From Candidatus Saccharimonadia bacterium (GTDB lineage Bacteria > Patescibacteriota > Saccharimonadia > Saccharimonadales > UBA4665): 42,683 nucleotides of DNA. The notes beneath the pieces were generated by a model. The model worked only from the letters and a program-made list of their open reading frames with translations, searched no databases and was not told where the DNA came from. Numbering within the stretch: position 1 is the stretch's first letter; each line of letters begins with the position of its first letter. The position numbers and the translations under genes are program-made. Below are positions 4,068 to 36,664 of the stretch, in pieces. The stretch covers positions 1 to 42,683 of the forward strand of contig JALQUD010000003.1 in assembly GCA_023268595.1 (NCBI GenBank), written 5' to 3'.

Positions 4068-4745
4068 TCACAACTTGACCGGTGAACCGAGTATGGTGTT
4101 TTCGCCACGGACATGGACGTTATATAGCGCCTTGATACGTGCTAACGGTTCACGCCGTCCGGCATTGTTGGCTTCGACGCCACTGGCGACGCCGTACGTT
4201 TCGATTCCGAAGTGCCGGCACAAGTAAATAGCCCGGGGCAGATGAGAACCCGCGCTATACACCACCAGCCGCGACTGTCCGAAGACATCATGGGCACGCT
4301 GGCAGGACTCATAGGTGCTGCGACCAGCAAAATCACGCTGCAGTTTATCCGCCGGTACATCCTTGACGTCAATCAGATACTTCATCATGGCAGTCGGTTC
4401 ATCATAACTGGTAAAACGGTTGTCACCGGACAGGATCAGTTTGTCGACGTCACCACGCCGCAAGCCTTCGGCAGCCACGTCCAGACGGGCGCGTAACTCA
4501 CGGAACGGCTTACCGTCGTCAGTGATTCCGGCACCAAGTACCATGCCGACCTTGACATGCTCGTCACGCACCTTATCGGGCGACAGGACATATGTATCAT
4601 ATGGCTCCACCACCGCTTCGGCCACGAACACGGCCAGGATCGGGAGGGACATCAGAAATACCGCAGCCAGACCGTACACTACCGGTCGACGGCGTACGGA
4701 GCGAAGTAACGGATCCAGGGCACGGGTTACTGTTCGTCTTATCAT
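4068..4745 (-). CDS. ElyC/SanA/YdcF (DUF218) family membrane-anchored protein
   Basis: N-terminal TM helix, then the DUF218 core: GMVLGAG.., KLILSGDNRFTSYDEPTAMMKYL, VVYSAGSHLPRA. Confidence 0.8.
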   Translation of the reverse strand: MIRRTVTRALDPLLRSVRRRPVVYGLAAVFLMSLPILAVFVAEAVVEPYDTYVLSPDKVRDEHVKVGMVLGAGITDDGKPFRELRARLDVAAEGLRRGDVDKLILSGDNRFTSYDEPTAMMKYLIDVKDVPADKLQRDFAGRSTYESCQRAHDVFGQSRLVVYSAGSHLPRAIYLCRHFGIETYGVASGVEANNAGRREPLARIKALYNVHVRGENTILGSPVKL

Positions 4746-4881
4746 AGCGTCATATATTGTAGCTCACGCTAGCCGCTTTCAGACCGGTGATATCGGATTT
4801 TTCACAGCAACCGGCGGCAGATAGGTCCAGTATGGCTACAGTATCTAGCTCAACCTATACCGATTAAGGAGACCAGCCATC

Positions 4882-5772
4882 ATGACGAACCAATACGACA
4901 TGCAGGACCCACGTTCACAATATCCGACCCCGGACATCCCCGAACAGACCCAGCCCGAACCGGGCCTCGACAAGGACATGACGCCCAAAGCCGACCACGG
5001 CGCCGACAGCTACACCGGTCACGGCCGGCTGAAGGGTAGGAAAGCATTGGTCACCGGCGCCGATAGTGGCATCGGCCGGGCAGTGGCGTTAGCCTTCGCC
5101 CGCGAAGGCGCTGATGTCGCCATGAGCTATCTACCAGCCGAGCAGGCCGATGCCGATGAGGCTAAGGCTGAGATCGAACAGGAGGGCGTCCACGTCGTGA
5201 TGCTACCGGCCGACCTGACCAATGAAGCGGCTGCCCGTGGTCTGCCCCACGAGGCGAACAAGGCGCTCGGTGGTCTGGACATCATCGTCAACAATGCCGG
5301 TAAGCAGATATTCACCGACGATTTTGCAAAACTGCCGAGCGACCAGCTGACCAAGACATTCACGGTCAATGTCTTTGCGATGTTCTGGATCTGCCAAGAA
5401 GCCCTGCAGTACCTCAAACCGGGTTCGGCCATAATCAACACGACGTCTATCCAAGCAACCATGCCCTCGCCGGGCTTATTAGATTATGCTTCGACCAAAG
5501 GCGCCATCCTGGCCTTCACCCGTGGCCTAGCCCAGGAACTGACACCGAAAGGTATCCGCGTCAATGCCGTGGCACCCGGCCCGGTCTGGACACCGCTCCA
5601 ACCGTCACATGGCCAATCGCAGGAAAAGTTGACCAGCTTCGGCCAGGAAACCCCATTGGGCAGGCCGGGGCAGCCGGCCGAAATGGCACCGCTGTACGTA
5701 TTTCTAGCCAGCCAGGAGTCAAGCTATGTTTCCGGCGAAACCATTGGCGCGGCTGGTGGCCGGCTACGCTAA
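4882..5772 (+). CDS. SDR family oxidoreductase, YdaD/YghA-like (general-stress type)
   Basis: AAGGAG Shine-Dalgarno. TGADSGIGRAVA, NNAG and YASTKGA (YxxxK) motifs. The N-terminal leader PEPGLDKDMTPKADHG..Y.G.GRLKG is typical of this SDR subgroup. Confidence 0.9.
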   Translation: MTNQYDMQDPRSQYPTPDIPEQTQPEPGLDKDMTPKADHGADSYTGHGRLKGRKALVTGADSGIGRAVALAFAREGADVAMSYLPAEQADADEAKAEIEQEGVHVVMLPADLTNEAAARGLPHEANKALGGLDIIVNNAGKQIFTDDFAKLPSDQLTKTFTVNVFAMFWICQEALQYLKPGSAIINTTSIQATMPSPGLLDYASTKGAILAFTRGLAQELTPKGIRVNAVAPGPVWTPLQPSHGQSQEKLTSFGQETPLGRPGQPAEMAPLYVFLASQESSYVSGETIGAAGGRLR

Positions 5773-6536
5773 GCTGTCTTTGACGACTTAAGAAAGCCAG
5801 TGGTCAGCCGGCCCAGCTGCGTCGCCTGACGGCGTGGCGAATGGTGGCCACCGGCAATCAGTTCCAGTCGCACGTTAGTAGGCAGATCATGGGCCGCCAG
5901 GTTACGCTGGTACTCCGGCCGATCGGATGTGCCGACGATCAGCAGGGTGGGTTGGTTCAGCCGGGCAAGGTCGGTGAATGCCTCGGCCCGCTCGATGATA
6001 TTGGCCAGGGATCCTTCACGGGACCAACGTCGGTGCCGCAACGTACCGGCAGCTAGCAACCGTATAGCCGGCCACAGTAGGTTACGATACCGCGAATCCA
6101 ACAGGATGCGATACGTACGGCTCGTCCGCCGCAATGTGCTACGCGCTTGTTCCGGTCCGTCATACAAGGGCGGATGCATCAGCACCAGCTGCGATACTCG
6201 GTCAGGATAGGCAAGGGCAAAGCGCTTGGCGATGAGTGCGCCCATGGAATGGCCAGCCAGTATCAATGGTACGTGGTCGCCGATACCATGACGTCGCAGC
6301 ATGTCGGCGATGTGCGCGATATGTTCTTCATACCCATACGCCGAGTCACGTGGCTTAGGAGCCGCCCCAAAGCCAAGCAGGTCAAGCGCCACTACGCGGA
6401 AACCGGCCGCAACCAGCAACGGCGCCAGCCTGTCCCAATACCGCATGGATCCAAGAAAGCCGTGCAATAGCACTATGACTGGACCATGGCCCCCATAGTC
6501 GCGCCAACCCCTATCATCCGATCCACTACGTTTCAT
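5769..6536 (-). CDS. alpha/beta hydrolase
   Basis: VLLHGFLGS, nucleophile elbow GHSMGA, C-terminal GGHHSP. Its 3' end overlaps the convergent SDR gene by 4 nt. Confidence 0.88.
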   Translation of the reverse strand: MKRSGSDDRGWRDYGGHGPVIVLLHGFLGSMRYWDRLAPLLVAAGFRVVALDLLGFGAAPKPRDSAYGYEEHIAHIADMLRRHGIGDHVPLILAGHSMGALIAKRFALAYPDRVSQLVLMHPPLYDGPEQARSTLRRTSRTYRILLDSRYRNLLWPAIRLLAAGTLRHRRWSREGSLANIIERAEAFTDLARLNQPTLLIVGTSDRPEYQRNLAAHDLPTNVRLELIAGGHHSPRRQATQLGRLTTGFLKSSKTA

Positions 6537-26558: not shown

Positions 26559-28157
26559 ATGTCAAAAGCGGCAGCAGCCACGAGTACGCAGGGGGTCAAG
26601 GGAAATACGACGGACATTCAGGCCGGGGCTGCTTCGCAAAGTGAAGTTATCAACGACCAGCTGCACCTGTTGGAGGAACGGACCAAAGCCCTGGAAGAAG
26701 CCCAGGCGCTGACCCACCTCGGGAGCTGGCAATGGGATGTCGCCACCGGCAAGATAAGCTGGTCCGACGAGCTGTACCGCATATACGGACTGAAGCCGCA
26801 GATACGCGAAGTCGGCTTCGTAGAGTTCATGGGCATGATCCATGATCAGGACCGCGACCGGGTGCAAACCATAATCGGCCAGGCTAGCCAGGATGGCAAA
26901 CCATTCGAGTTCCGTCACCGCATCGTCCAACCGGACGGCACCGTGCGGCGGCTACTCGGTATGGGTAAAGTCGAGAAGGATGCCAGTGGCGCCATCACCC
27001 GCATGATTGGCACGTCGCAGGACATCACCGACCAATGGGACGCTGAGCAGGCTTTGCAGCGCAGTGACCGCCGCTTCCAGGCTGTCACCAACGCCACGCA
27101 CGACCTGGTGTATGACATCGACCTGCAGGATGACACCATCTGGTTCAATGAGATACTGCAGGAAGAGTACGGCTACGATAAATCAGCCAACGACCGCTCG
27201 ATGAAGTGGTGGCTGGAACGGCTGCACCCCGAGGATGGCGGCGCCGTAGCCAAGCAAGTCCAGGAACTTATCGCCAGCCGCCAGCAGCGCAGCTGGATCA
27301 CCGAATACCGTCTGCAGAAAGCCGATGGCACCTATGCGTTGGTGCGCAACCGGGCGTTCATGCTGCTCGACCCATCCGGCGAACCGGAACGGATCATCGG
27401 CTCGTGCCTGGATATCACCGAAGCCCGGCAGCTGGAGCGCGCCAAGGACGAATTCATCTCACTGGTGTCACACCAGCTACGCACACCACTGACCATCATC
27501 CGGCTGTACGGCAACATGCTCACCGACGGCATTGTCGGCGAGCTACAAAGCGAACAGAAGGGCTACGTTGGCAAGATTACCGATGCCAGTATCCGGCTCA
27601 TCAAACTGGTCGGCGATATCCTGAACATTTCCCGGTTGGAACTCAACCGTATAAAAATCGACCCGAAACCGACCGACGCCAACGCGCTCATCCAAAACTG
27701 CCTGGACGAGCTGGCACCGTTCGCACAGTCACGTGGCGCCACCATCCAGTACAAACCGGACGCCAGCATCGCTACGATCGACCTCGATGCCACGATATTC
27801 GGCGAGATCGTCAATAATCTGGTCAGCAACGCGCTACGCTACGTCCGTACCCACAAGGGCGAGGTACAGTTAACCTTTGCCAAGCAGCAACGGGGCTACG
27901 TACTGACCGTCAAAGACAATGGTATTGGCATTCCGCGCTCCGCCCAACCGCACATCTTCGAACGCTTCTTCCGGGCCCCCAACGCCGCCCGGGCCGACGG
28001 TGAAGGCACCGGCTTAGGTTTGTACTTGGTCAAGATGTTCGCCGAAGCGGCCGGTGGCAAAGCCTGGTTCAAAAGCGAAGTCGGCAAGGGCACTTCGTTC
28101 TACGTCCTGATTCCGCCGGAAGGCATGAAGGCGATCCGGCCGCGCAGCCAGGAATAA
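26559..28157 (+). CDS. PAS-domain sensor histidine kinase (cytoplasmic)
   Basis: PAS modules (LGSWQWDVATGKISWSDELYRIYG.., ..VYDIDLQDDTIWFNE.., ..EYRLQKADGTYALVRNRA..), H-box VSHQLRTPLTII, LVSNALRY, VKDNGIGI, GTGLGLYLV. Confidence 0.9.
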   Translation: MSKAAAATSTQGVKGNTTDIQAGAASQSEVINDQLHLLEERTKALEEAQALTHLGSWQWDVATGKISWSDELYRIYGLKPQIREVGFVEFMGMIHDQDRDRVQTIIGQASQDGKPFEFRHRIVQPDGTVRRLLGMGKVEKDASGAITRMIGTSQDITDQWDAEQALQRSDRRFQAVTNATHDLVYDIDLQDDTIWFNEILQEEYGYDKSANDRSMKWWLERLHPEDGGAVAKQVQELIASRQQRSWITEYRLQKADGTYALVRNRAFMLLDPSGEPERIIGSCLDITEARQLERAKDEFISLVSHQLRTPLTIIRLYGNMLTDGIVGELQSEQKGYVGKITDASIRLIKLVGDILNISRLELNRIKIDPKPTDANALIQNCLDELAPFAQSRGATIQYKPDASIATIDLDATIFGEIVNNLVSNALRYVRTHKGEVQLTFAKQQRGYVLTVKDNGIGIPRSAQPHIFERFFRAPNAARADGEGTGLGLYLVKMFAEAAGGKAWFKSEVGKGTSFYVLIPPEGMKAIRPRSQE

Positions 28158-28165
28158 AGTCCGAC

Positions 28166-29590
28166 CTAGCGGGCGCGTAGCACGATAAGGTGTTCGATGT
28201 GCGGCGTGCGTGGGAAGAAGTTATACCCACGATGAAACTCGATGTCGTATCCGGCTGCCAGCAGCTCGGCGTCACGGGCCTGGGTGACCGGATTGCAGCT
28301 TAAATAAATGATGCGCTCCGGCCGTGCTTCAAGCAGGCGTTCCGTCACCGAATGATGCAGTCCGGCCCGTGGAGGGTCGACGATGACCGTGGCATCGCCC
28401 GATATCTGTTCCAACGCCTGCTCCGCAGCCGCTAAAACCGGCTTGATCACAGCCGTACTCGTGTCAGCGATCAACGCGGCGTTACGTTCCATCTCGCGGT
28501 AAGCATGCTCGTCGATTTCCACCAATGTCAGCTGCCGGCTGCCATCACCGGCCGTGCCGATGGACAGGCCGATGCTGCCGACGCCGCTGTACATATCTAT
28601 CAGCGGCTGATCGTCGGCGATCCAGCGCTGCATGTCGCGCAATGCTTCCTCATATACCGGCAGGTTCACCTGGAAGAAACCTTCGGTAGCATACCTGAAC
28701 TGCACGCCCAGGATGTTATCGGCCAACACGATGTCGCCAAAAGCCGTCAGACGCTCAGTGATGCGGGATGCCGGGCTGCGTGGGTCGGAATATATTATCT
28801 CTCCACCCTGGGCCGGTAAGGCGGCAGCCTCGGCCGGACTGATGACGTCAGGCAGCTTGTCCTTGACATACAGCTGCCAGACGCACGACCCGTCACGGTC
28901 ACAGCGTATAAGCAACGCCTTGAGCGAGCGGGCCTCGACCGGCTTGCTGCGCAGCAGATCCCGCACCGCCACTGCCAGACGGTTGATTTCGGGCCGGGCC
29001 AGGCTGGTGCCATCGACAGGAACCTTGCCATGAGTGCCACGTCTGAAGAACGCCAGGTCGAGCCGGTTTTCATCAGTGTCCCACCACCAGCTGAATTCCA
29101 CTTTATTGCGATAAGCCGTCTGGTTGCTGTCACTATACACCTCTACCACACCGGGCAGGGCGGTATGATGGAGCGCGAAGGCTTCTTGGATGAGCTGGCC
29201 TTTGGCCTGTTGCTCGTCGGCAAAACCCATGATCTGCCACGGACTGGTCGACAAGAAACTTTGCGGGTCGAGCGGCTCCTGCCGGCCACTGCTGGCTTCA
29301 AGCACTTCGGTGACCACGCCTTCGGCCATGGAAGACTTGTTCTTGGTCAGCTGGACCTGGACCGTCTCACCGGGCAAGCCACCCCATACGAAGACCCGCT
29401 TGCCATCAGGCAGGCTGCCGATAGTCTGGCCGCCACCGACGATGCGTTCCAACCTGACTTGGTGCGAGGGAAGTGGTTTTCGTTTCACGCCAGCAGTATA
29501 GCAGAGCCGGGTCATAGAACCATAGTAATTAGTACCACGCACGATCGTCTGGACAAGACCGTCAGGCGGCCTATAATAGCAGATAGCCAT
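28166..29590 (-). CDS. RumA/TrmA-family 23S rRNA (uracil-5)-methyltransferase-like enzyme
   Basis: TRAM-like N-terminus GKRVFVWGGLPGETVQVQLTK. SAM motif DMYSGVGSIGL. Catalytic-Cys region IIYLSCNPVTQARD. An alternative start at 29515 (MTRLCY..) has TACTAT 6 nt upstream. Confidence 0.88.
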   Translation of the reverse strand: MAICYYRPPDGLVQTIVRGTNYYGSMTRLCYTAGVKRKPLPSHQVRLERIVGGGQTIGSLPDGKRVFVWGGLPGETVQVQLTKNKSSMAEGVVTEVLEASSGRQEPLDPQSFLSTSPWQIMGFADEQQAKGQLIQEAFALHHTALPGVVEVYSDSNQTAYRNKVEFSWWWDTDENRLDLAFFRRGTHGKVPVDGTSLARPEINRLAVAVRDLLRSKPVEARSLKALLIRCDRDGSCVWQLYVKDKLPDVISPAEAAALPAQGGEIIYSDPRSPASRITERLTAFGDIVLADNILGVQFRYATEGFFQVNLPVYEEALRDMQRWIADDQPLIDMYSGVGSIGLSIGTAGDGSRQLTLVEIDEHAYREMERNAALIADTSTAVIKPVLAAAEQALEQISGDATVIVDPPRAGLHHSVTERLLEARPERIIYLSCNPVTQARDAELLAAGYDIEFHRGYNFFPRTPHIEHLIVLRAR

Positions 29591-29860
29591 GTGAGCATGA
29601 GCGTTTTAGGGAGCCGGTGACGGCTACTTCAAGCACCATCGCATGCAGGCTCCATATTTATACAGGTAAGCATACTCCGGTCACTGCGCGCCTCATACAA
29701 GCTCCCACGCTCTAAGCAATCGACATTACAATCTGTCCGGACTCGAACGGTTCCCACAGGTCGCCGAAGCGCTTTCAAACCCCTCAAAGCCGTTCACCGA
29801 CCGCATCCTTACGTTGCATCGGAACTCTTTACGAATCTTATTACCCATACAGGAGCTTGT

Positions 29861-30127
29861 ATGACCGCTATCAACCAGAATGTTACTATCAACGCTTTCT
29901 TTTTCAAGGACACCCCACAGGAGCGAATCGAGGCCTTCCCGCGCCAGATGGAATACGGTAACCGCCAATACACGTTCCAGGATGGTCTGCACCGCCTGGT
30001 CCGGCGCGGCCAACGCATCTTCGAGCTATTCGATATGACCGATGGGCAAACGGTCTTCCGGCTAGCCCGGCACGACGGTATGCCGATGAGTGAATGGCGC
30101 CTGATAGGCACCCGCGCCAGCGCCTGA
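29861..30127 (+). CDS. 88-aa protein of unrecognised family (paralogue of 35028-35294)
   Basis: AGGAG lies 5 nt upstream of the ATG. It aligns along its whole length with the other 88-aa ORF (see findings). It ends 15 nt before the YdjM-like gene. Confidence 0.75.
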   Translation: MTAINQNVTINAFFFKDTPQERIEAFPRQMEYGNRQYTFQDGLHRLVRRGQRIFELFDMTDGQTVFRLARHDGMPMSEWRLIGTRASA

Positions 30128-30142
30128 GGTATAATCGTTAGC

Positions 30143-30724
30143 ATGATCGCCCGCACCCACGATGTCGCCGCTTTTACCGCCCTGATGGCAGTCGTGCTCA
30201 GCCAGCCGCTGCACAGCGTGACGCTGGCGACCGTCGTGGCAGCGGTGCTCGCTAATCAGATCGGTGGTATCGCACCGGACATAGACCAGCCGACGGCGCC
30301 GTTCTGGCGCAACCTGCCGGTAGGCGGCATATTCGGCAGGCTGATCGCCCGCATGATGGGCGGACATCGCTTTATCAGCCACTCGATACTCGGCCTGGCA
30401 CTGTTCGGTTTCGCTGCCCACTGGCTACTGGCCGCGCTCCATCCCATCATCCCCAAAGTCGACATCGGACTGGTCTGGTGGTCGTTTATGATCGGCATGG
30501 TGTCGCACCTGATCATGGACAGCTTCACGAAGGAAGGCGTGCCGTGGCTGTTACCGATCCCTTGGAAGTTCGGGCTACCGCCCGTCCGCCGGCTGCGTAT
30601 CACTACCGGCAAGAATATCGAACGTTTCGTAGTCCTGCCGGTGCTTGTAGGGTTGGCAATCTGGTTATTCGCCCAAAGTTACACAGAAATCAGTACGTTT
30701 ACCAACCAATATATCAAGCGCTAA
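30143..30724 (+). CDS. ydjM: YdjM/DUF457 family membrane-bound metal-dependent hydrolase
   Basis: APDIDQP, GHRFISHSIL, GMVSHLIMDSFTKEGVPWLLPIPWKFGLPP and GKNIERF match the E. coli YdjM motifs LPDIDHP, GHRGFTHSLL, SHILADMLTPAGVPLLWP..RFRLP and GNQLERF. TATAAT (30130-30135) lies 7 nt upstream of the ATG. Confidence 0.9.
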   Translation: MIARTHDVAAFTALMAVVLSQPLHSVTLATVVAAVLANQIGGIAPDIDQPTAPFWRNLPVGGIFGRLIARMMGGHRFISHSILGLALFGFAAHWLLAALHPIIPKVDIGLVWWSFMIGMVSHLIMDSFTKEGVPWLLPIPWKFGLPPVRRLRITTGKNIERFVVLPVLVGLAIWLFAQSYTEISTFTNQYIKR

Positions 30725-30726
30725 TA

Positions 30727-30755
30727 TTGATTAATTGTCCTTGTTGTTTTATAAT
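30727..30755 (+). promoter_or_regulatory. Promoter with very short leader
   Basis: TTGATT (30727-30732), 17-nt spacer, TATAAT (30750-30755). The ATG at 30767 is 11 nt downstream, with no Shine-Dalgarno. Confidence 0.55.
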
Positions 30756-30766
30756 ACTTATTAAGT

Positions 30767-31651
30767 ATGCCCGAAATCAAGCGAAAGCGCCGTAACCTTC
30801 GTAAAACAGCCGGCCGGACCCTCCTGGTGGTCTGGGCATTGCTGCTGGTGACTGGCATCGTCTATGCCGAGATCATCCGGCCGAACACGGCTGCCAACGA
30901 TTATTCAAAGCGTCTGAACGCCGAAGCCGGCCGGACAGAGAAGTGCTTCGAAAGCCTGACTAAGACTACCGAACTGGACATCTTCTACGCTCCGGACGTC
31001 AAGCTTGACACCAAGCAAAAGAATATCGCTTCCATCCGCCAGCAGATCAATAGCTGCCGGCAGCAGGTAGCTTCTTTTGAGTCGGTCACCAAAAGCCTGC
31101 CGACGATGCGCTTTGCCGGCTACACGCCGACCTTCAAAGAAGCCAAAGTGACCCAGCGCCAAGCACTCGACGTGGTCGGACAGAGCAACGACGTCATGAA
31201 CCAGTACGACCGCATGGCTGCCTTCCTGAGCAGCTACTACACTACCGTGGACACTTTCTTGAAATACACCGAACAGCTAAGCACGCTCAACACTGGCATC
31301 GTCACCGCTGCTAATGCCAAGGTACTGGAAGACCAGGCGACCGAGCTAGAGACCATGGCCAAAGATATGCGTACCATGGATGCCCCCAACGAATTCAGCG
31401 ACACCAAGACATTGACAGCCGACATGTTCGACAAGGCTGCCACCGGCTTCAAAGATGTACGCTATGGCTACGTCAATTACGCCGATGCCTATACGACTCG
31501 CGGCTTCAACCAGGTAGATGAAGCGCTCAAGTCCTACGACAGTACCATCGTCAACTCTCCGTTCGACAAGCTGACCTCGTCCTACATCCCCAAGCAGGTC
31601 ATGCAGCTGCCAAACAAGATTGACGATCTGCTTGCCGGCGCATCCGAATAG
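30767..31651 (+). CDS. Single-pass membrane protein with alpha-helical ectodomain, unknown function
   Basis: Basic N-terminus plus TM (LLVVWALLLVTGIVYA), then ~250 aa helix-rich polar sequence. TTGATT-17-TATAAT promoter 11 nt upstream of the ATG. Confidence 0.7.
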   Translation: MPEIKRKRRNLRKTAGRTLLVVWALLLVTGIVYAEIIRPNTAANDYSKRLNAEAGRTEKCFESLTKTTELDIFYAPDVKLDTKQKNIASIRQQINSCRQQVASFESVTKSLPTMRFAGYTPTFKEAKVTQRQALDVVGQSNDVMNQYDRMAAFLSSYYTTVDTFLKYTEQLSTLNTGIVTAANAKVLEDQATELETMAKDMRTMDAPNEFSDTKTLTADMFDKAATGFKDVRYGYVNYADAYTTRGFNQVDEALKSYDSTIVNSPFDKLTSSYIPKQVMQLPNKIDDLLAGASE

Positions 31652-31796
31652 TTCCTGTCGACGCATCAGCTAGTACACGTTATTACACTTGAACAATATG
31701 TAAACTACGGCATACATGCCGGCAGATTAGCGCTTGCACGGCATTGGCTAGGGAGGCATACTTTGCGGTACACCAGCTAGCAACAGGAGAAAGCCG

Positions 31797-32252
31797 ATGC
31801 CACACATCTTCCATGCCTTTGATTACACTATCACCGCTTTCATCGTGCACGACGGTAAAGTACTGTTAGTCAACCACCCACGCTACGACAAATGGATTCC
31901 GGTCGGTGGCCATATCGAACTGGACGAGGACCCGGAAGAAGCTTTGCTCCGCGAGGTCAGGGAAGAGACTGGTCTGGAAGTCACACCACTCGGCAAACGC
32001 CCAGCAGTAGAATCACCTGGTACTAAATTCCTGATCACGCCGGACTATCTTGACGTCCATGAGGCCAACCCGCCGCACCGGCATATATCATTCACGTACT
32101 TCGTCGCCGCGCGTGACGCGAACTTCATGAAGTCCGATGAGCACGATGATATGCGTTGGTTCACACCTGAAGAGTTAGAGCAAGCGCAGTGGAACTTGTC
32201 ACCAGCGGTGCGATTCTATTGCCGGCAGGCGATACGCAAAGCTGCCAATTGA
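31797..32252 (+). CDS. NUDIX hydrolase
   Basis: GGAGAAAG Shine-Dalgarno. Nudix box GGHIELDEDPEEALLREVREETGLEV. Confidence 0.92.
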   Translation: MPHIFHAFDYTITAFIVHDGKVLLVNHPRYDKWIPVGGHIELDEDPEEALLREVREETGLEVTPLGKRPAVESPGTKFLITPDYLDVHEANPPHRHISFTYFVAARDANFMKSDEHDDMRWFTPEELEQAQWNLSPAVRFYCRQAIRKAAN

Positions 32253-32256
32253 ACGG

Positions 32257-34602
32257 CTACTCGGTAGCGGTGGCAGGCTTGGCCGTGACTTCGCGCTTGG
32301 CTGCGTTCGATGGGGCAACCATCGAGCCGGTGCGAGCCGTGTTCCAGACCGAGCCGGCGTATGCGCCGCGCAGGGCCCGGAAAGCCGTACGGTACAGCAG
32401 CATGGTACGGATAGGACTGTAGACCAGACGGGTAAACGGAATAGCCAGCAAGTGTGATGGTTTTTCCTTGGCCAGTATCACGGCTATGATCGCCATGGCC
32501 GCCTGGATCGAGACGGTCGCGAAGAAGAACAGTATCAATGAAGTGAAGTTACCGGCCATCAGGTTCTCGATGTTGACCGTGATCAGGATCGGAATGAAGA
32601 AGAGCGGGATGAAGGCGTTGTAGATTGCCAGCGGCATCACGAACATGCCGGTCCAGCCATACTTACGGCGGAAGAACATATCACGGTGCTTCCAGAATGC
32701 CTGGAAGGTGCCGTACATCCAGCGGAAACGCTGCTTGGTCAGTGCTTTGATGGTCTCCGGCGCTTCGGTGTAACTGATGGCATCATTGTCCTGAAGCACC
32801 TTGTAGCCCAGACGATGGACACTCAGCGTCAGGTCGAAGTCCTCGGCCAGGGTGACATGCTTATAGCCACCGGCCGCCAGGATGACGTTCTTGCGCCAGG
32901 CACCGCAAGCACCCGGTACGATCATGACCGAGCCCAGGGCAGCCTGGGCGTTACGCTCGATGTAGATACCGATCATGTAGTCCAGCATCTGCCAGCGTGT
33001 GACGATGTTGTGGATATTGCCAACTTTGACGTTGCCGGCCACGGCGCCGACTTCCGGATCGGCAAAGTGGCGCACCAGGTTACCCATGGTAGTCGCAGGG
33101 AAGACCGTATCAGCATCGATGCCAACGATGATTTCACCCTTGGCGTGCTTGACACCGAAGTTAAGTCCTGACGACTTGCCGCCGTTCGGCTTGGAGAACG
33201 CGAAGACGCGCTTGTAGCGGCGGGCCAGGTCAGCGGCGACTTTTCCAGTGTTATCCTTGGAGCCGTCGTCGACGATGATGATTTCGATGTTGCGGTAATT
33301 AGAACCGAGCACCGACTTGACAGTACCCTCAAGCACCGATTCCTCGTTATAAGCCGAGATTATGACGCTGACCAATGGCCGGTAGCCCTTAGGAATCTTC
33401 TTGAAGCGGTTCTTGCGCATGTTGTAGATTGCCAGCGCGACGTTGAAGAACATCGTGATGAACAGGGTAAAGACCGTCAGATAGAACAGCTTGCCGACCA
33501 CGGTGTGCGGCCAGACCAGGTAGGCGCTGGCCAGCGCCAGGCTGGTCCGGTCAGCGACGGAGACCGGCTCCTTGGCGACCAACGCCGGTTGCTGTGAGTA
33601 CATCTGGTTCATGGTCACGAAGCTGTAGCCGTTGGCCTTGGCGGCATCGATCAGCCGCTGGGTGTAGGCGATGGTCTTGGTACGGTCGCCACCGGCGTCG
33701 TGTAGCAAGGCTACGATCGGCTGGCCGTCAAAGTTCGGCAATAGCTGCTTGCCGCCGTTGTTGAACATCCAGTCATCGGAGTCGAAGTTGTGGTTGGCAA
33801 TCACGTATCCAAGCTTCTGAGCCGTCAGGATACCGACCAGGTGGTTGCGCATCGACTGCTCATCGTTACCCATGTACGGCAGGCGGAAGAATGATGAGCG
33901 GACACCGGTCGTCGCAGTCAGAACCCGTGACGTCTGGTTGATCTCTTGCTCGGCACGGGTACTGCTCACGAAATCAAAGTCAACGTGGTTGAAAGTGTGG
34001 TTGGCCAGGTCGTGGCCTTCCTGGGCTTGGCGCTTGGCGATTTCCGGATGCTTGGTGATGTTGCTGCCGGTTTCAAAGAAGGTAGCCTGGACGTTGTTCT
34101 TGGCCAGCACATCAAGTATGCGTGGGGTGTACAACGGATCGGGGCCGTCATCATACGTCAGGGCGATAGTCTTGGCTGCGCTTGGCTGGCCGTAGCGCTG
34201 GAGGGCGAATTCGTGGTCGCCGACCATCAGCCGTTCCTTGTCACCGAGCGGCACCGAGCCGGTCTGGGAGTAGACAGGGGTGGCGTAGTAGGTGTTGTCG
34301 GCCATTTGTAAGTGGACGACCCGTACCAGCGGACCTTCACCGATGACCGGCGTGTTGGTACGGCCTACCAAAGCGGCGATTTCTTCCGGAGACAAACCGG
34401 AAGCACCATCCTTGACCTTGGCATCACCCGGTGTGGCGGCTACTTTCAACGGCACGACGTTATCGTCGGCCAGCAGCTTTGGCACGTTGACGTAGAGGAA
34501 TCCGGTGAGAATCGCCAGGAACACCAATACCACGGCGCTGATCTTCTGCCAGCGGCGGCCTTTGTGGTCAAAGAATATCGGTTTCTCGTCGTGCTTTTCC
34601 AT
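32257..34602 (-). CDS. Bifunctional polysaccharide deacetylase (NodB) / processive family-2 glycosyltransferase, membrane-embedded (MatB/PgaC-like)
   Basis: N-terminal TM. NodB motifs LTYDDGPDP and ANHTFNHVD. After further TM helices, GT2 motifs IIVDDGSKDNT, GIDADT, GACGAWRK, LAEDFDLT and QRFRW (QxxRW), then C-terminal TM helices. Confidence 0.92.
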   Translation of the reverse strand: MEKHDEKPIFFDHKGRRWQKISAVVLVFLAILTGFLYVNVPKLLADDNVVPLKVAATPGDAKVKDGASGLSPEEIAALVGRTNTPVIGEGPLVRVVHLQMADNTYYATPVYSQTGSVPLGDKERLMVGDHEFALQRYGQPSAAKTIALTYDDGPDPLYTPRILDVLAKNNVQATFFETGSNITKHPEIAKRQAQEGHDLANHTFNHVDFDFVSSTRAEQEINQTSRVLTATTGVRSSFFRLPYMGNDEQSMRNHLVGILTAQKLGYVIANHNFDSDDWMFNNGGKQLLPNFDGQPIVALLHDAGGDRTKTIAYTQRLIDAAKANGYSFVTMNQMYSQQPALVAKEPVSVADRTSLALASAYLVWPHTVVGKLFYLTVFTLFITMFFNVALAIYNMRKNRFKKIPKGYRPLVSVIISAYNEESVLEGTVKSVLGSNYRNIEIIIVDDGSKDNTGKVAADLARRYKRVFAFSKPNGGKSSGLNFGVKHAKGEIIVGIDADTVFPATTMGNLVRHFADPEVGAVAGNVKVGNIHNIVTRWQMLDYMIGIYIERNAQAALGSVMIVPGACGAWRKNVILAAGGYKHVTLAEDFDLTLSVHRLGYKVLQDNDAISYTEAPETIKALTKQRFRWMYGTFQAFWKHRDMFFRRKYGWTGMFVMPLAIYNAFIPLFFIPILITVNIENLMAGNFTSLILFFFATVSIQAAMAIIAVILAKEKPSHLLAIPFTRLVYSPIRTMLLYRTAFRALRGAYAGSVWNTARTGSMVAPSNAAKREVTAKPATATE

Positions 34603-34667
34603 AAGTTCCGTTCGTCGTCGTATCGCACGCCTTGGCGTGTTGCCTCACCTCGTATTTACGAGTATGT

Positions 34668-34676
34668 ACTATACCA
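34668..34676 (-). promoter_or_regulatory. Extended -10 element (TGGTATAGT on the minus strand) for the deacetylase/GT2 gene
   Basis: It is followed by a ~65-nt leader with two hairpins (CTCGTA-AA-TACGAG; ACACGCC-AA-GGCGTG[T]) before the ATG at 34602. Confidence 0.45.
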
Positions 34677-34772
34677 TGTTTTTTGCTACAACGATAGTCT
34701 ATTGTAGATAAGACTTCACTTGGTGAAGCATTTTCAGGGGACAGCACGCTGGTCACGGTCGCAGCTAGACGG

Positions 34773-34778
34773 TATAAT
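34773..34778 (+). promoter_or_regulatory. Candidate distal -10 hexamer (TATAAT) upstream of the small-ORF/polymerase operon
   Basis: This is the only consensus hexamer in the 425-bp spacer. If used, it implies a ~240-nt untranslated leader. Confidence 0.3.
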
Positions 34779-34981
34779 AAGAACCAGCCATGTGTGTGTT
34801 CGCCGGCCGTCCACGGCCACACGCGTTCCTACATGCAGGCTTCACACAAGACTTCGTGGTCCTCCAGCGCAGCGGCGATATACCGCACGGCCGAGCGGGG
34901 CTCACTCACAAACGACTCTATAAGGCAGCGGCCCGGCCTTTCCCAACAGGGACCGATCTCGTCATTATTCAATCATAGTGG

Positions 34982-35007
34982 CTGTTCCGTCATATTCTTG
35001 CGAACAG
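34982..35007. promoter_or_regulatory. Inverted repeat CTGTTC-N14-GAACAG immediately upstream of the SD of the small-ORF/polymerase operon
   Basis: Perfect 6-bp arms. A CATATT hexamer sits inside the spacer and AAGGAG begins 4 nt after the right arm. It could be an operator or an RNA hairpin. Confidence 0.4.
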
Positions 35008-35027
35008 TCCAAGGAGTCCCAAAAGTC

Positions 35028-35294
35028 ATGCGTGAAGTCATTAACCAGGAAGTATCTGTCGTCTCATATTTCAGCGCCCGCAAGCGCCTCAGCCTGCCCC
35101 ACGTGGTCAGCTGGCAGGGCAGGGAGTATGGCGTCGGCAAGATCGGCTTCCACCACACCGTCCGTAACGGTGACACCTTGCACCACATCTATGAGCTGGT
35201 CGACAGCGACGAACAGTTGTGGATGCGCATCAATCTGGATACCAGCACCTTGCACTGGACGTTGGAAGCCATCAGCGACGGGATGGCGGACTAG
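35028..35294 (+). CDS. 88-aa protein of unrecognised family (paralogue of 29861-30127), translationally coupled to the Y-family polymerase
   Basis: The internal ATG at 35028 is preceded by AAGGAG (35011-35016). The upstream part of the track ORF (34794-35027) is Arg/Ser/His-rich and looks non-coding. The TAG stop at 35292-35294 is 2 nt before the polymerase ATG. Confidence 0.75.
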   Translation: MREVINQEVSVVSYFSARKRLSLPHVVSWQGREYGVGKIGFHHTVRNGDTLHHIYELVDSDEQLWMRINLDTSTLHWTLEAISDGMAD

Positions 35295-35296
35295 TC

Positions 35297-36664
35297 ATGG
35301 CCGTCCACACCGCGCCGCTACGCGATGACGTCCGCACACCGGTCCAGACCTACCGCGACCTGGTCAGCCTGCCGGTCAACCGCAACCGGCCGCTCATCAT
35401 GCATATCGACCTCAATTCCTGCTTTGCCACCATCGAGCAGCAGGCTAACCCGCTATTGCGAAACAAACCGATGGGCGTCGGCGCCTACACGCGCGACACC
35501 GGCATAATCCTGGCCGCCAGCTATGACGCCAAACGCCTGGGCATCAAGCTCGGCACCAGCGTGCGGGAGGCCAAACAGATCTACCCAGGCTTCGTGACGC
35601 TGATGCCCGACCCGCCCAAATACCGAGAAGCCCACAAGCGGTTCAGGGAAGTGTTACTGCGCTACACCGACGACGTGGTCGCCAAGTCGATCGATGAGTT
35701 CGTACTCGACTTCCATGGCTCGCTGGCCGTCAAGGCGGGCCGCGACCTGGAAGACATCGGCCACGAGATCAAACAGGCCATCAAGGAGTCGCTGGGCGAA
35801 TACGTCACGGTCAATGTCGGCATCGGCACCAACCGCTTCCTGGCCAAGCTGGCAGCCGGCCTGCACAAGCCTGACGGACTGGACGTCATTACCCACGAGA
35901 ACCTGGAGGCCGTCTACCGCTCGGAAGACCTGCTGGCCCTACCGGGCATCAACCGGCGCTTCAAGGCCCGGTTGCAGGCGGCCGGCATCGGCACGCCGTT
36001 CGACATGTACCAGGCCAGTGGCCGCTACCTCAAAGATTTCGTGTTCTTTAGCAAGCTGGGGCACCAGTGGCACCAACGGCTGCGCGGCTGGGAAGTCGAT
36101 AAGGTGGAGTTCGACCGCAAGTCCATCGGCCACCAGTACGCCCTGGAAAAGCGGACGGCCGACCGTGACGAGATCAAACGGCTGCTGATGAAACTATGCG
36201 AAAAGACCGGCCGGCGGTTGCGGCGGCACGGTTCGGCGGCTTATGGCATCGACCTGTCATTGCGCTACGCCCAAAGCCAGGACCCCGATAACCAGTTCGC
36301 CCGGCCGGCCGGTTTTGGCGGCCACTACAAGTACGACTACTGGCACCAAAGCCATAAGACCGCCCATCCGCTGTATGCCACGCTGGATATCTACCGGGCG
36401 GCCGAACAGCTGCTCGACGGTACGCGCTTCATGGACAAGGTATCGCAACTCAGCGTCACCGTCTTTAACCTGCGGCCCTGCGATCCGGAACAGACCGGCT
36501 TGTTCGATGAAGAACTGCAACGCACCCGGCGGCTCGCCAGCGCCGCCGATATCGTCAACGACCGGTATGGCGAGTTCAGCGTCGTGCCGGCGGTCATGTC
36601 CAATATGAGCAAGACCATCCTGGACCGCGTGGCCTTTGGCAACGTCGACGAGATCGGCGGCTGA
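35297..36664 (+). CDS. dinB: Y-family DNA polymerase (DinB/UmuC-like translesion polymerase)
   Basis: IMHIDLNSCFATIEQ (N-terminal catalytic Asp), SIDEFVLDF (Asp-Glu pair), VNVGIGTNRFLAKLAA, LPGINRRF. C-terminal QTGLFDE (clamp-binding-like) and DIVNDRYGEFSV tail. Start taken at MAVHTAPL.., immediately after the small ORF. Confidence 0.9.
   Translation: MAVHTAPLRDDVRTPVQTYRDLVSLPVNRNRPLIMHIDLNSCFATIEQQANPLLRNKPMGVGAYTRDTGIILAASYDAKRLGIKLGTSVREAKQIYPGFVTLMPDPPKYREAHKRFREVLLRYTDDVVAKSIDEFVLDFHGSLAVKAGRDLEDIGHEIKQAIKESLGEYVTVNVGIGTNRFLAKLAAGLHKPDGLDVITHENLEAVYRSEDLLALPGINRRFKARLQAAGIGTPFDMYQASGRYLKDFVFFSKLGHQWHQRLRGWEVDKVEFDRKSIGHQYALEKRTADRDEIKRLLMKLCEKTGRRLRRHGSAAYGIDLSLRYAQSQDPDNQFARPAGFGGHYKYDYWHQSHKTAHPLYATLDIYRAAEQLLDGTRFMDKVSQLSVTVFNLRPCDPEQTGLFDEELQRTRRLASAADIVNDRYGEFSVVPAVMSNMSKTILDRVAFGNVDEIGG

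Follow-up and report, generated by a model that had tools for sequence, protein, structure and literature searches.

Two paralogous small genes of the stand-alone ImuB-C type carry a homologous structured RNA leader in a Saccharibacteria locus

The window analyzed here, a stretch of 42,683 nucleotides from Candidatus Saccharimonadia bacterium, contains two small genes on the forward strand, ORF-A (29861–30127) and ORF-B (35028–35294). Both frames are open and exactly 88 codons long, each with a Shine-Dalgarno (SD)-like GGAG upstream (CAGGAGCTTGTATG for ORF-A and AAGGAGTCCCAAAAGTCATG for ORF-B), just as the first-pass annotation of this DNA had described them. ORF-A encodes an 88-aa protein of the class that we term A-type, which carries an FDMTDG motif, and ends 15 nt before the ATG of a gene for a YdjM/PF04307 membrane hydrolase (30143–30724, forward strand; Pfam E = 4e-24). 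ORF-B encodes the B-type, polymerase-linked protein, also of 88 aa, and its stop codon (35292–35294) is separated by 2 nt from the ATG (35297) of a Y-family DNA polymerase of 455 aa with IMS and IMS_C domains and the D-x-N...SIDE active-site pattern (35297–36664, forward strand). Both of these spacings, the active-site pattern, and a Nudix gene between the two modules (31797–32252) had been noted previously and were verified in the window.

The likeness of the two small proteins along their whole length, claimed earlier by eye, holds up in pairwise BLASTP (25% identity over 60 aa, E = 2e-7), in the comparison of their family profiles (hhalign; 90.9% probability, E = 1.1e-6, 75 columns), and in matching AlphaFold2 models, which show six β-strands in the same order with pLDDT values of 92.6 and 86.3. 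A single combined profile recovers both A and B types, and the HMM of one family scores members of the other at about 17–36 bits where a score is reported, some cross-scores falling below the reporting threshold. Hence, the similarity is beyond chance, and ORF-A and ORF-B are true, distant paralogues. Searches of Pfam and NCBIfam at E ≤ 1 returned no meaningful match for either protein, and the YolD (PF08863) match is likewise absent, in keeping with the initial impression that they hold no recognizable domain and are not YolD-like.

More sensitive comparison of the family as a whole points to a protein type that is already in the literature. Among 72,556 plasmids, the sole tblastn match of a family member was an 84-aa ORF of Geobacter anodireducens, which sits between lexA and a Y-family polymerase gene and which matches the 112-member family profile over 81 of its 84 residues (hhalign; 97.7% probability, E = 2.1e-12). 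Gene context supports the assignment of this ORF as an orthologue of GSU0042, which the sequence did not confirm; the stand-alone ImuB-C domain has its prototype in ORFs of the Geobacter lexA-ORF-polY type, and the literature places such GSU0042-like proteins beside DinB-type polymerases, LexA, and SRAP (PMC3765255; PMC6511836). A family member from Gottesmanbacteria, also of the CPR, is found in the same classical arrangement, with the operon order Peptidase_S24 (LexA-like), 86-aa ORF, IMS polymerase. The family traits, a length of about 80 residues (∼85 aa in the GSU0042 type), an all-β structure, an invariant C-terminal Trp, and a conserved Arg, match those published for ImuB-C and so count for this identity. 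No PDB relative was found for the family, as has likewise been reported for ImuB-C (PMC12926913).

The relationship to ImuB itself is more distant. Pfam DUF6504 (PF20114) is the ImuB C-terminal domain; residues 430–500 of Sinorhizobium meliloti ImuB match it, and PGAP calls the ImuB of imuA-imuB-dnaE2 cassettes a "DUF6504 family protein." Weak, sub-threshold matches to DUF6504 were obtained from 23 of the 112 family members, and none from ORF-A, ORF-B, or the Geobacter ORF. When the family profile was compared directly with six proteobacterial ImuB C-terminal domains, the match fell short of significance (E = 0.01, 28 columns), so the step from GSU0042-like proteins to ImuB rests on the literature together with the sub-threshold DUF6504 matches. 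The two groups, placed in the same proposed superfamily and both all-β, have in common the pattern P-x-x-[FIV]-x-W-x-x-[RK], a hydrophobic strand, a D/G turn, [FW]R[LI], and W-x-[LM]. The family of ORF-A and ORF-B belongs with the stand-alone ImuB-C (GSU0042-like) type, and the proposal of an undescribed family is not supported in view of the Geobacter profile match, the Gottesmanbacteria operon, and the published stand-alone type. The surveys cited here (PMC3765255, PMC6511836, PMC12926913) make no mention of Patescibacteria or Saccharibacteria.

The census of gene neighborhoods fits ORF-B as a partner dedicated to the Y-family polymerase, as had been suggested from its position. Of 78 Saccharibacteria loci, 77 have the polymerase gene directly after ORF-B and 36 have a SRAP gene upstream of ORF-B. 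In 50/59 loci, a candidate start of the polymerase is no more than 30 nt away from the ORF-B stop, an overlap of 17–20 nt being the commonest arrangement. This position immediately 5′ of, and overlapping, an active Y-family polymerase gene, often with SRAP adjacent, is that of the stand-alone ImuB-C genes, and the window polymerase is 34% identical to the Geobacter polymerase downstream of the ImuB-C ORF. A Pfam search of the window polymerase did not detect the RecA-NT/DUF4113 motif. In ImuB, the ImuB-C domain is fused to a polymerase that is inactive, whereas the window proteins stand alone and accompany an active one, and unlike the ImuA-ImuB-DnaE2 mutasome they have neither DnaE2 nor ImuA nearby. 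The operon logic of a small presumed regulator directly upstream of a Y-family polymerase is also that of UmuD′/UmuC (Pol V) and of YolD/YqjX with YqjW/UvrX; however, ORF-A and ORF-B give no Peptidase_S24 match any more than a YolD one, those systems are LexA-controlled whereas LexA is absent at ORF-A and ORF-B, and the ImuB-C barrel differs from the SH3-like barrel common to UmuD′ and YolD (PMC12926913).

Upstream of each paralogue is a homologous 5′ leader RNA, previously uncatalogued and without a match among the 4227 families of Rfam 15. In the ORF-A leader, the 5′ structured domain (29585–29695, forward strand) comprises helices P1, P1a, and P2, of which P1 and P2 are reproduced by a single-sequence fold; the covariance model R1 scores it at 73.2 bits (E = 4.6e-14), a match by construction because the sequence is part of the R1 seed alignment. 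The domain upstream of ORF-B (34786–34861, forward strand) is a diverged copy that matches R1 weakly (23.7 bits, E about 0.016), has the P1 blocks AGCCAUGUG...GCAGGCUU in common with the ORF-A leader, and folds, at minimum free energy (MFE), with the stretch that follows P1 paired to the region of the start codon. Covariation is evident from RNAalifold and from pair counts. Across 16 leaders, 90.4% of cells are paired as compared with 78.7% in shuffles, none of 500 shuffles being as high. Among 55 leaders, 20 of 23 pairs have compensatory changes, with a covariation of 0.412 versus 0.160 in shuffles, a signal that collapses in partner-sliding controls. Each of the 85 covariance-model matches precedes a family gene of the same strand; in the reverse test, which took the RNA as its starting point, 14/14 testable loci had a family gene downstream, against 0/62 control loci.

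A promoter-like site upstream of ORF-A, TGGACA-16-TATAAT (29550–29577, forward strand), predicted from the consensus with 11 of 12 matches, would have transcription begin about 7 nt ahead of the leader RNA, and its −10 box and spacing are conserved in relatives including L079 and L082. The corresponding putative site upstream of ORF-B is TGGTCA-17-TATAAT (34750–34778, forward strand), with the −10 box and the next block conserved in L082, L079, and L001. Directly 3′ of P2 in the ORF-A leader, an anti-RBS segment, CAUACAAGCUCC (29694–29705, forward strand), forms a perfect 12-bp duplex in the MFE fold with the SD and start codon at 29852–29863. This pairing is specific to the cognate leader: in 16 leaders the cognate duplexes average −12.4 kcal/mol against −8.9 for non-cognate ones, and the observed mean was reached in 0 of 5000 permutations. 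The 3′ part of the leader (29696–29860, forward strand) holds in addition a nearly invariant long-range helix, GAACGG/CCGUUC (columns 249–254 with 298–303, 96.9% paired), and a hairpin just before the SD that in AT-rich relatives is terminator-like with a U-run. RBS-sequestering riboswitches and autoregulatory leaders, including those of ribosomal proteins, show the same succession of a covarying domain from the predicted transcription start and a complement of the SD and start codon, and likewise the terminator-like hairpin and U-run, but in contrast to metabolic and ribosomal leaders the element here is tied to a DNA-damage-tolerance gene family.

No LexA gene was found within 6 kb, nor a Cheo-type SOS box at ORF-A or ORF-B, so the analogy to the LexA regulon drawn in the first-pass annotation is not borne out here. 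The leader RNA instead occupies the place that the gene for the LexA repressor holds in related operons. Given homology, gene linkage, RNA covariation, and RBS complementarity, all observed, we consider it probable that a known kind of protein, an ImuB-C polymerase partner, stands in Saccharibacteria under a structured RNA leader in place of lexA. ORF-A and ORF-B would be diverged copies of the small all-β protein typified by GSU0042, with ORF-B the likely partner of the catalytically competent translesion polymerase downstream, the two being made from a single mRNA by coupled translation. ORF-A would be a duplicate turned mostly solitary gene, for which YdjM is an incidental neighbor. The most likely role of ORF-B is to bind the polymerase, and perhaps also RecA or damaged DNA, which would license or target lesion bypass, by analogy with the ImuB-C domain that docks partners in the ImuA-ImuB-DnaE2 mutasome. 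Since the segment next to the conserved 5′ domain pairs with the RBS and start codon, an RNA-level switch probably controls expression, the signal being presumably a ligand or a protein and the direction of switching equally presumptive.

The small proteins might alternatively be RNA-binding autoregulators of their own leader, as many ribosomal proteins are, with the polymerase merely co-expressed. Here the RNA does track the gene family rather than the polymerase, preceding solitary A-type genes with no polymerase nearby; leader and ORF appear to have been duplicated together; and the proteins have the conserved Arg and other basic residues, nucleic-acid binding having been proposed for ImuB-C by Aravind et al. 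(2013; PMC3765255). However, no RNA-binding fold or motif was recognized, the near-absolute polymerase adjacency and start/stop overlap argue for a stoichiometric partner, and the Geobacter and Gottesmanbacteria relatives have the protein without the leader RNA, so that RNA binding cannot be the ancestral role of the family. We therefore regard autoregulation as unlikely, albeit worth keeping in view.

Rather less probable is that the upstream element is a protein-binding DNA operator and promoter region, or a separate small-RNA gene, and not a cis-acting leader. It starts right at the conserved −10 box, a small hairpin ends some copies, and in many SRAP-containing loci as much as about 1.2 kb separates it from the downstream ORF-B, with a SRAP gene of the opposite strand intervening, its 3′ end toward the element, a distance and arrangement that suggest that it may act there as a separate RNA. 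Against this, the compensatory changes and their collapse on partner sliding are expected for RNA and not for an operator, covariation links the post-P2 segment to the SD and start codon of its cognate gene, and A-type genes have the terminator-like hairpin and U-run just before the SD.

The original proposal, of an undescribed accessory family in two damage-response modules (ORF-A/YdjM and ORF-B/polymerase) analogous to LexA-regulon genes, now seems very unlikely. In its favor are the tight spacing of both pairs and the missing Pfam and NCBIfam matches, and the ORF-A/YdjM order is indeed kept in the close relatives L082 and L083. However, the gap is 226 nt in L082, in L079 YdjM has the opposite orientation to ORF-A, neither YdjM nor polymerase lies near the A-type gene in L080/L081 and L084–L091, and YdjM was found in none of the 78 polymerase loci; the match to stand-alone ImuB-C and the missing LexA gene and SOS box weigh in the same direction. 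The ORF-A/YdjM pairing is local synteny, not a functional module, and ORF-A is a largely solitary paralogue. This second, diverged A-type class sets the Saccharibacteria apart from the known stand-alone ImuB-C systems; in 15 of the 78 loci ORF-B has an A-type gene upstream, which in seven is its direct neighbor.

That one or both small ORFs arose by chance in GC-rich DNA, as might be supposed from their shortness, their lack of database annotation, and the many overlapping spurious ORFs of a window of ∼55% GC, has practically no standing, being already refuted by conservation: the two families comprise 105 and 27 clusters at 90% identity, of nearly constant length and 41–99% amino-acid identity, with confident models and conserved SD and position, and the profile search retrieved 456 clusters at 50% identity.

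Both small genes are intact 88-codon frames on the + strand, ORF-A at 29861-30127 and ORF-B at 35028-35294, each with a GGAG upstream, and the coordinates and lengths in the first-pass annotation were confirmed together with the spacings of 2 and 15 nt to the genes downstream and the position of a Nudix gene between the two modules. The alignment of the two proteins, drawn there by eye, is upheld by BLASTP (E=2e-7) and by hhalign comparison of the two family alignments (90.9% probability, E=1.1e-6); cross-type HMM scores are roughly 17-36 bits where reported, some falling below the reporting threshold. The AlphaFold2 models of both proteins (pLDDT 92.6 and 86.3) contain six long β-strands in the same succession and no helices. 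Trp-77 is invariant across 112 diverse family members, with Pro-24, Gly-48 and Leu-79 nearly so, and Arg-67 is nearly invariant in a 40-sequence set.

At a 90% clustering level ORF-B has 105 relatives, nearly all of exactly 88 aa, and ORF-A has 27, and those that are named, for either protein, belong to Candidatus Saccharimonadales. The combined profile recovered 456 clusters at 50% identity among 1.84 billion representatives; nearly all of the 150 listed from these 456 are stand-alone proteins of ~80-100 aa. The family falls into two types, B-like (...LHWTLEEVSDG) and A-like (...FDMTDG..YRL...WTLV). The family also reaches other lineages of the candidate phyla radiation (CPR), at least one B-like cluster being from Candidatus Gottesmanbacteria; a further protein-homology search with a broad alignment returned mostly the same Saccharibacteria proteins again. 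Two ORF-B homologues (P0019 and P0063) carry the JGI names "acyl dehydratase" and "glycoside hydrolase/deacetylase ChbG", which, without any domain support, look like annotation errors.

Neither ORF-A nor ORF-B has a usable Pfam or NCBIfam match, PDB sequence-profile searches with the family gave noise only, and in Foldseek the ORF-B model has no PDB or viral-structure match at E≤0.001, its best viral match being an uncharacterised siphovirus protein (TM 0.57, E=0.02). The earlier remark that YolD-like features are lacking was borne out, with no match of the window proteins to YolD-like (PF08863) or UmuD (Peptidase_S24) families at E≤1, and both are also absent among the 25 listed of the 46 families matched by the 112 relatives at E≤10. 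When these relatives were scanned individually, 23 of the 112 weakly matched Pfam DUF6504 (PF20114), the next commonest family being found in 4. The best of these DUF6504 matches has E=4e-4, members scanned in this way stay below the PF20114 gathering threshold of 24.2 bits (P0144, for example, scores 18.4 bits), and neither window protein matches at E≤1. DUF6504 is the C-terminal domain of ImuB, matched by the S. meliloti pSymA ImuB at residues 430-500, and the PGAP label "DUF6504 family protein" denotes ImuB in sphingomonad imuA-imuB-dnaE2 cassettes; a literature search for DUF6504 or PF20114 found no papers.

This domain, ImuB-C, also has a stand-alone form. Aravind et al. (2013; PMC3765255) defined the superfamily from ~80-residue proteins typified by Geobacter GSU0042, and described the domain as all-β with a conserved C-terminal Trp and its stand-alone genes as mostly paired with a DinB-type polymerase and frequently accompanied by LexA and SRAP. 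Operons of the form lexA-imuB-C-polY with an active polymerase were reported by Timinskas and Venclovas (2019; PMC6511836), and a 2026 survey (PMC12926913) presents ImuB-C as a β-barrel without a PDB relative and lists it among putative PolY-binding subunits. The class formed by ORF-A and ORF-B has the traits of this superfamily: a globular, predicted all-β domain of ~80 residues in which a C-terminal Trp and basic residues are conserved.

A tblastn search of all PLSDB plasmids with a B-like member has a single match, an 84-aa ORF on plasmid pSD of Geobacter anodireducens, to which the 112-member family profile (A4) aligns end to end over 81 columns (hhalign 97.7%, E=2.1e-12). This ORF lies between lexA and a frameshifted Y-polymerase, and from its genus and operon context we infer that it corresponds to GSU0042. 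The Gottesmanbacteria member has a comparable setting, an operon of Peptidase_S24, an 86-aa ORF and an IMS polymerase with a 17-nt overlap, and the window polymerase shares 34% identity with the Geobacter enzyme. Given the match to the Geobacter ORF, the suggestion that the two genes represent an undescribed family does not stand; rather, the window proteins are new members of an already known kind, the stand-alone ImuB-C proteins. The last step, from GSU0042-like proteins to ImuB itself, is carried by an HMM link in the literature (E about 1e-4 to 1e-5) together with the PF20114 matches below threshold that both share; hhalign of the family with six proteobacterial ImuB-C domains is not significant (E=0.01, 28 columns only), and neither is its direct comparison with the S. 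meliloti ImuB-C alone. The split polymerase on pSD (locus L098, 4252-5480) is divided into ORFs 4252-5118 and 5094-5480, is missing from the plasmid gene table, and is either a pseudogene or the product of a sequencing error.

The window polymerase gene (35297-36664, + strand) starts with an ATG 2 nt after the ORF-B stop and encodes 455 aa with IMS and IMS_C domains, its nearest NCBIfam models being those of Pol IV, at scores below their cutoffs. The idea that ORF-B is a polymerase partner was borne out by the 78 genome loci retrieved with the ORF-B profile, almost all labelled Saccharibacteria, since a Y-family polymerase directly follows ORF-B in 77 of them and the lone exception ends at a contig edge. 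At 50 of the 59 loci evaluated, the ORF-B stop has a candidate polymerase start no more than 30 nt away, and an overlap of 17 or 20 nt is the commonest arrangement. The polymerases share a C-terminal tail, MANMQDxI[IL]KRV[AP]FG, which in the window lies at about 36590-36661 (SNMSKTILDRVAFGNVDEIGG). This tail, which the Gottesmanbacteria enzyme has as well, is where the small protein or the clamp might dock. Pfam detects no DUF4113/RecA-NT motif in the polymerase.

An operon with a Y-family polymerase holds for ORF-B but fails for ORF-A as a class. The companion proposal of a module linking ORF-A to the YdjM gene (PF04307 domain match; 30143-30724, + strand, 15 nt after the ORF-A stop) did not survive comparison, and this adjacency is incidental. 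The window order is kept in L082 and L083, but with a 226-nt gap; in L079 the genes for YdjM and a 294-aa protein are flipped with respect to ORF-A, both YdjM and a polymerase are missing from the surroundings of more distant A-type genes (L080/81, L084-91), and YdjM was found at 0 of the 78 polymerase loci. A 294-303-aa protein with an N-terminal hydrophobic segment and no Pfam family (window 30767-31651; L079 6531-7415, - strand; L082 7165-8076) stays adjacent to YdjM, even where the pair is inverted in L079, and this protein is more likely than ORF-A to be the real partner of YdjM.

In 15 of the 78 loci ORF-B has an A-type gene upstream of it, directly adjacent in 7 (A-B-polymerase), and this gene often follows a PAS histidine kinase and a single-domain response regulator. 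Such a kinase precedes the A-type gene and its leader in L003, L007, L008, L010, L020, L042, L065, L069-L072, L079, L082 and L084, followed in most of these loci by the single-domain response regulator and in L079 by a Crp-like regulator instead. The window has a PAS histidine kinase at 26559-28157, then an opposite-strand TrmA-like methyltransferase, and no response regulator was found. The simplest history would be a tandem A-B-polymerase cassette split in the window's lineage by insertion of the genes for YdjM, the 294-aa protein, the Nudix protein and a deacetylase-glycosyltransferase. The last of these, a 781-aa fusion of a polysaccharide deacetylase and a family-2 glycosyltransferase (32257-34602, - strand), separates the two modules and occupies the same position in L079 and L082.

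Neither any Saccharibacteria locus nor the window has a LexA homologue within 6 kb; one is present in the Gottesmanbacteria relative. A search for Cheo-type SOS boxes (GAAC-N4-GTTC, at most one mismatch) gave 20 sites where 14.3 are expected, none of them in either leader, and a CTGTTC-N14-GAACAG inverted repeat before ORF-B was rejected as an operator, being better explained as a leader hairpin by the Shine-Dalgarno (SD) sequence. It was during the search for an SOS operator that a structured leader RNA came to light. The intergenic regions upstream of ORF-A (about 270 nt) and ORF-B (about 425 nt) each hold a promoter-like site and have conserved blocks in common from about 7 nt after the -10 box. 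For 16 A-type leaders RNAalifold predicts P1 (5' AGYCAUGUGAGU with ACUC.GCAGRCUU), then a variable internal hairpin, P2 and a long-range helix (GAACGG/CCGUUC), with compensatory changes in 16 of 28 pairs. In this alignment 90.4% of cells pair, compared with 78.7% after column shuffling (none of 500 shuffles as high); covariation scores 0.392 compared with 0.186, and sliding the partners lowers pairing to 25-48%.

Run over both strands of 975 kb, a covariance model of the 5' domain of the leader (R1, comprising P1, P1a and P2) gave 85 matches at E≤1, all of them on the same strand as, and upstream of, an A- or B-type gene, including the one A gene on the minus strand. In the window R1 matches the ORF-B leader at 34786-34861 (+ strand, 23.7 bits) and the ORF-A leader at 29585-29695 (+ strand, 73.2 bits), the latter by construction, its sequence being in the model seed. 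In 55 leaders aligned to R1, and hence in an alignment that favours the structure, compensatory changes occur in 20 of 23 pairs and the covariation score is 0.412, compared with 0.160 after shuffling and no more than 0.073 when the partners are slid. Given that the loci behind the 85 matches had been chosen through the protein, we also ran the reverse test, starting from the RNA. A 17-mer from P2 retrieved 80 metagenome loci, 18 of which hold the full motif, and all 14 full-motif loci whose downstream sequence exceeds 400 nt have a family gene on the same strand, compared with 0 of 62 control loci with chance 17-mer matches. The gene starts 100-750 nt after the R1 match in 13 of the 14; in L156 the longest ORF overlaps the match. 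Rfam 15 has no gathering-score match anywhere in the window; at E≤10 the ORF-B leader matches nothing and the ORF-A leader gives only two noise matches, on the opposite strand. Comparative support for an uncatalogued structured RNA at this locus is good. Its two window copies cover 29585-29860 and 34786-35027, and those of relatives come from among loci L001-L091 and L102-L181. A short ORF in the leader, starting ATGTGTGG and resembling the SRAP N terminus MCG, was rejected because it is not conserved as an ORF.

Judged by its sequence, the leader is built like an RNA switch that would act on translation and possibly also on termination. The 12 nt that immediately follow P2 in the ORF-A leader (29694-29705, CAUACAAGCUCC) are a perfect complement of the SD and start codon at 29852-29863, and the minimum-free-energy fold pairs these two segments with P1 and P2 kept. 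Across the 16 leaders the post-P2 segment pairs with its own ribosome-binding site (RBS) at -12.4 kcal/mol and with those of other leaders at -8.9 kcal/mol (0 of 5000 permutations as low); the cognate pairing is stronger, and the complementarity therefore covaries. AT-rich relatives have a hairpin and U-run just before the SD, and in the ORF-B leader fold the region after P1 pairs with the start-codon region. A covarying structure, a fixed 5' position at one gene family and overlap with the RBS or terminator together fit the general class of riboswitches and cis-regulatory leaders.

ORF-B would be co-translated with the polymerase and act as its small subunit or adaptor, by analogy with the mutasome ImuB-C and published proposals, ORF-A would be a free paralogue, and the leader RNA would gate both. 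The RNA is absent from the Geobacter and Gottesmanbacteria loci, both with LexA, and occupies the place of lexA in related operons. We tentatively propose, as a possibility somewhat short of an even chance, that in Saccharibacteria a structured RNA switch of a new class took the place of LexA in an ancestral lexA-imuB-C-polY operon and controls the polymerase module and the solitary paralogues; it would be a leader to which the ImuB-C-like protein itself binds or a riboswitch that senses a damage- or nucleotide-related signal. The RNA follows the protein family and not the polymerase, which makes autoregulation by the protein a serious rival to a small-molecule riboswitch. New here is the LexA-less, RNA-led arrangement with its class of solitary paralogues; the kind of protein is known. 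If LexA was indeed replaced in this way, the leader would provide reduced-genome CPR bacteria with an RNA-based stand-in for SOS control of mutagenesis, and its position offers a testable handle on how error-prone synthesis is controlled with no obvious LexA nearby. ImuB-C is among the least understood parts of bacterial mutagenic polymerase systems, and the window extends it to Saccharibacteria, within the CPR, with a large alignable set of free-standing members (the 456 clusters) and confident models. The signal sensed by this candidate new class of regulatory RNA could reveal what ImuB-C proteins respond to.

A divergent SRAP gene (PF02586) lies upstream of ORF-B in 36 of the 78 loci, within 80 nt in 29 of them; the window has none. 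At SRAP-containing loci (L052, L055, L059, L062, L066, L076, L077 and others) the RNA lies just past the 3' end of the opposite-strand SRAP gene, as in L052, where the RNA is at 5237-5300 (+), SRAP at 5318-5974 (-) and ORF-B starts at 6001 (+), and its transcript would therefore cross SRAP antisense before reaching ORF-B and the polymerase. Such a layout could mean that SRAP and the polymerase operon interfere with each other's transcription, or that the RNA is an independent sRNA. Another SRAP/ImuB-C neighbourhood is found on a Sphingomonas paucimobilis plasmid (L094), where an imuA-imuB-dnaE2 cassette, its ImuB annotated as "DUF6504 family protein", has SRAP (1-374) two genes upstream of it.
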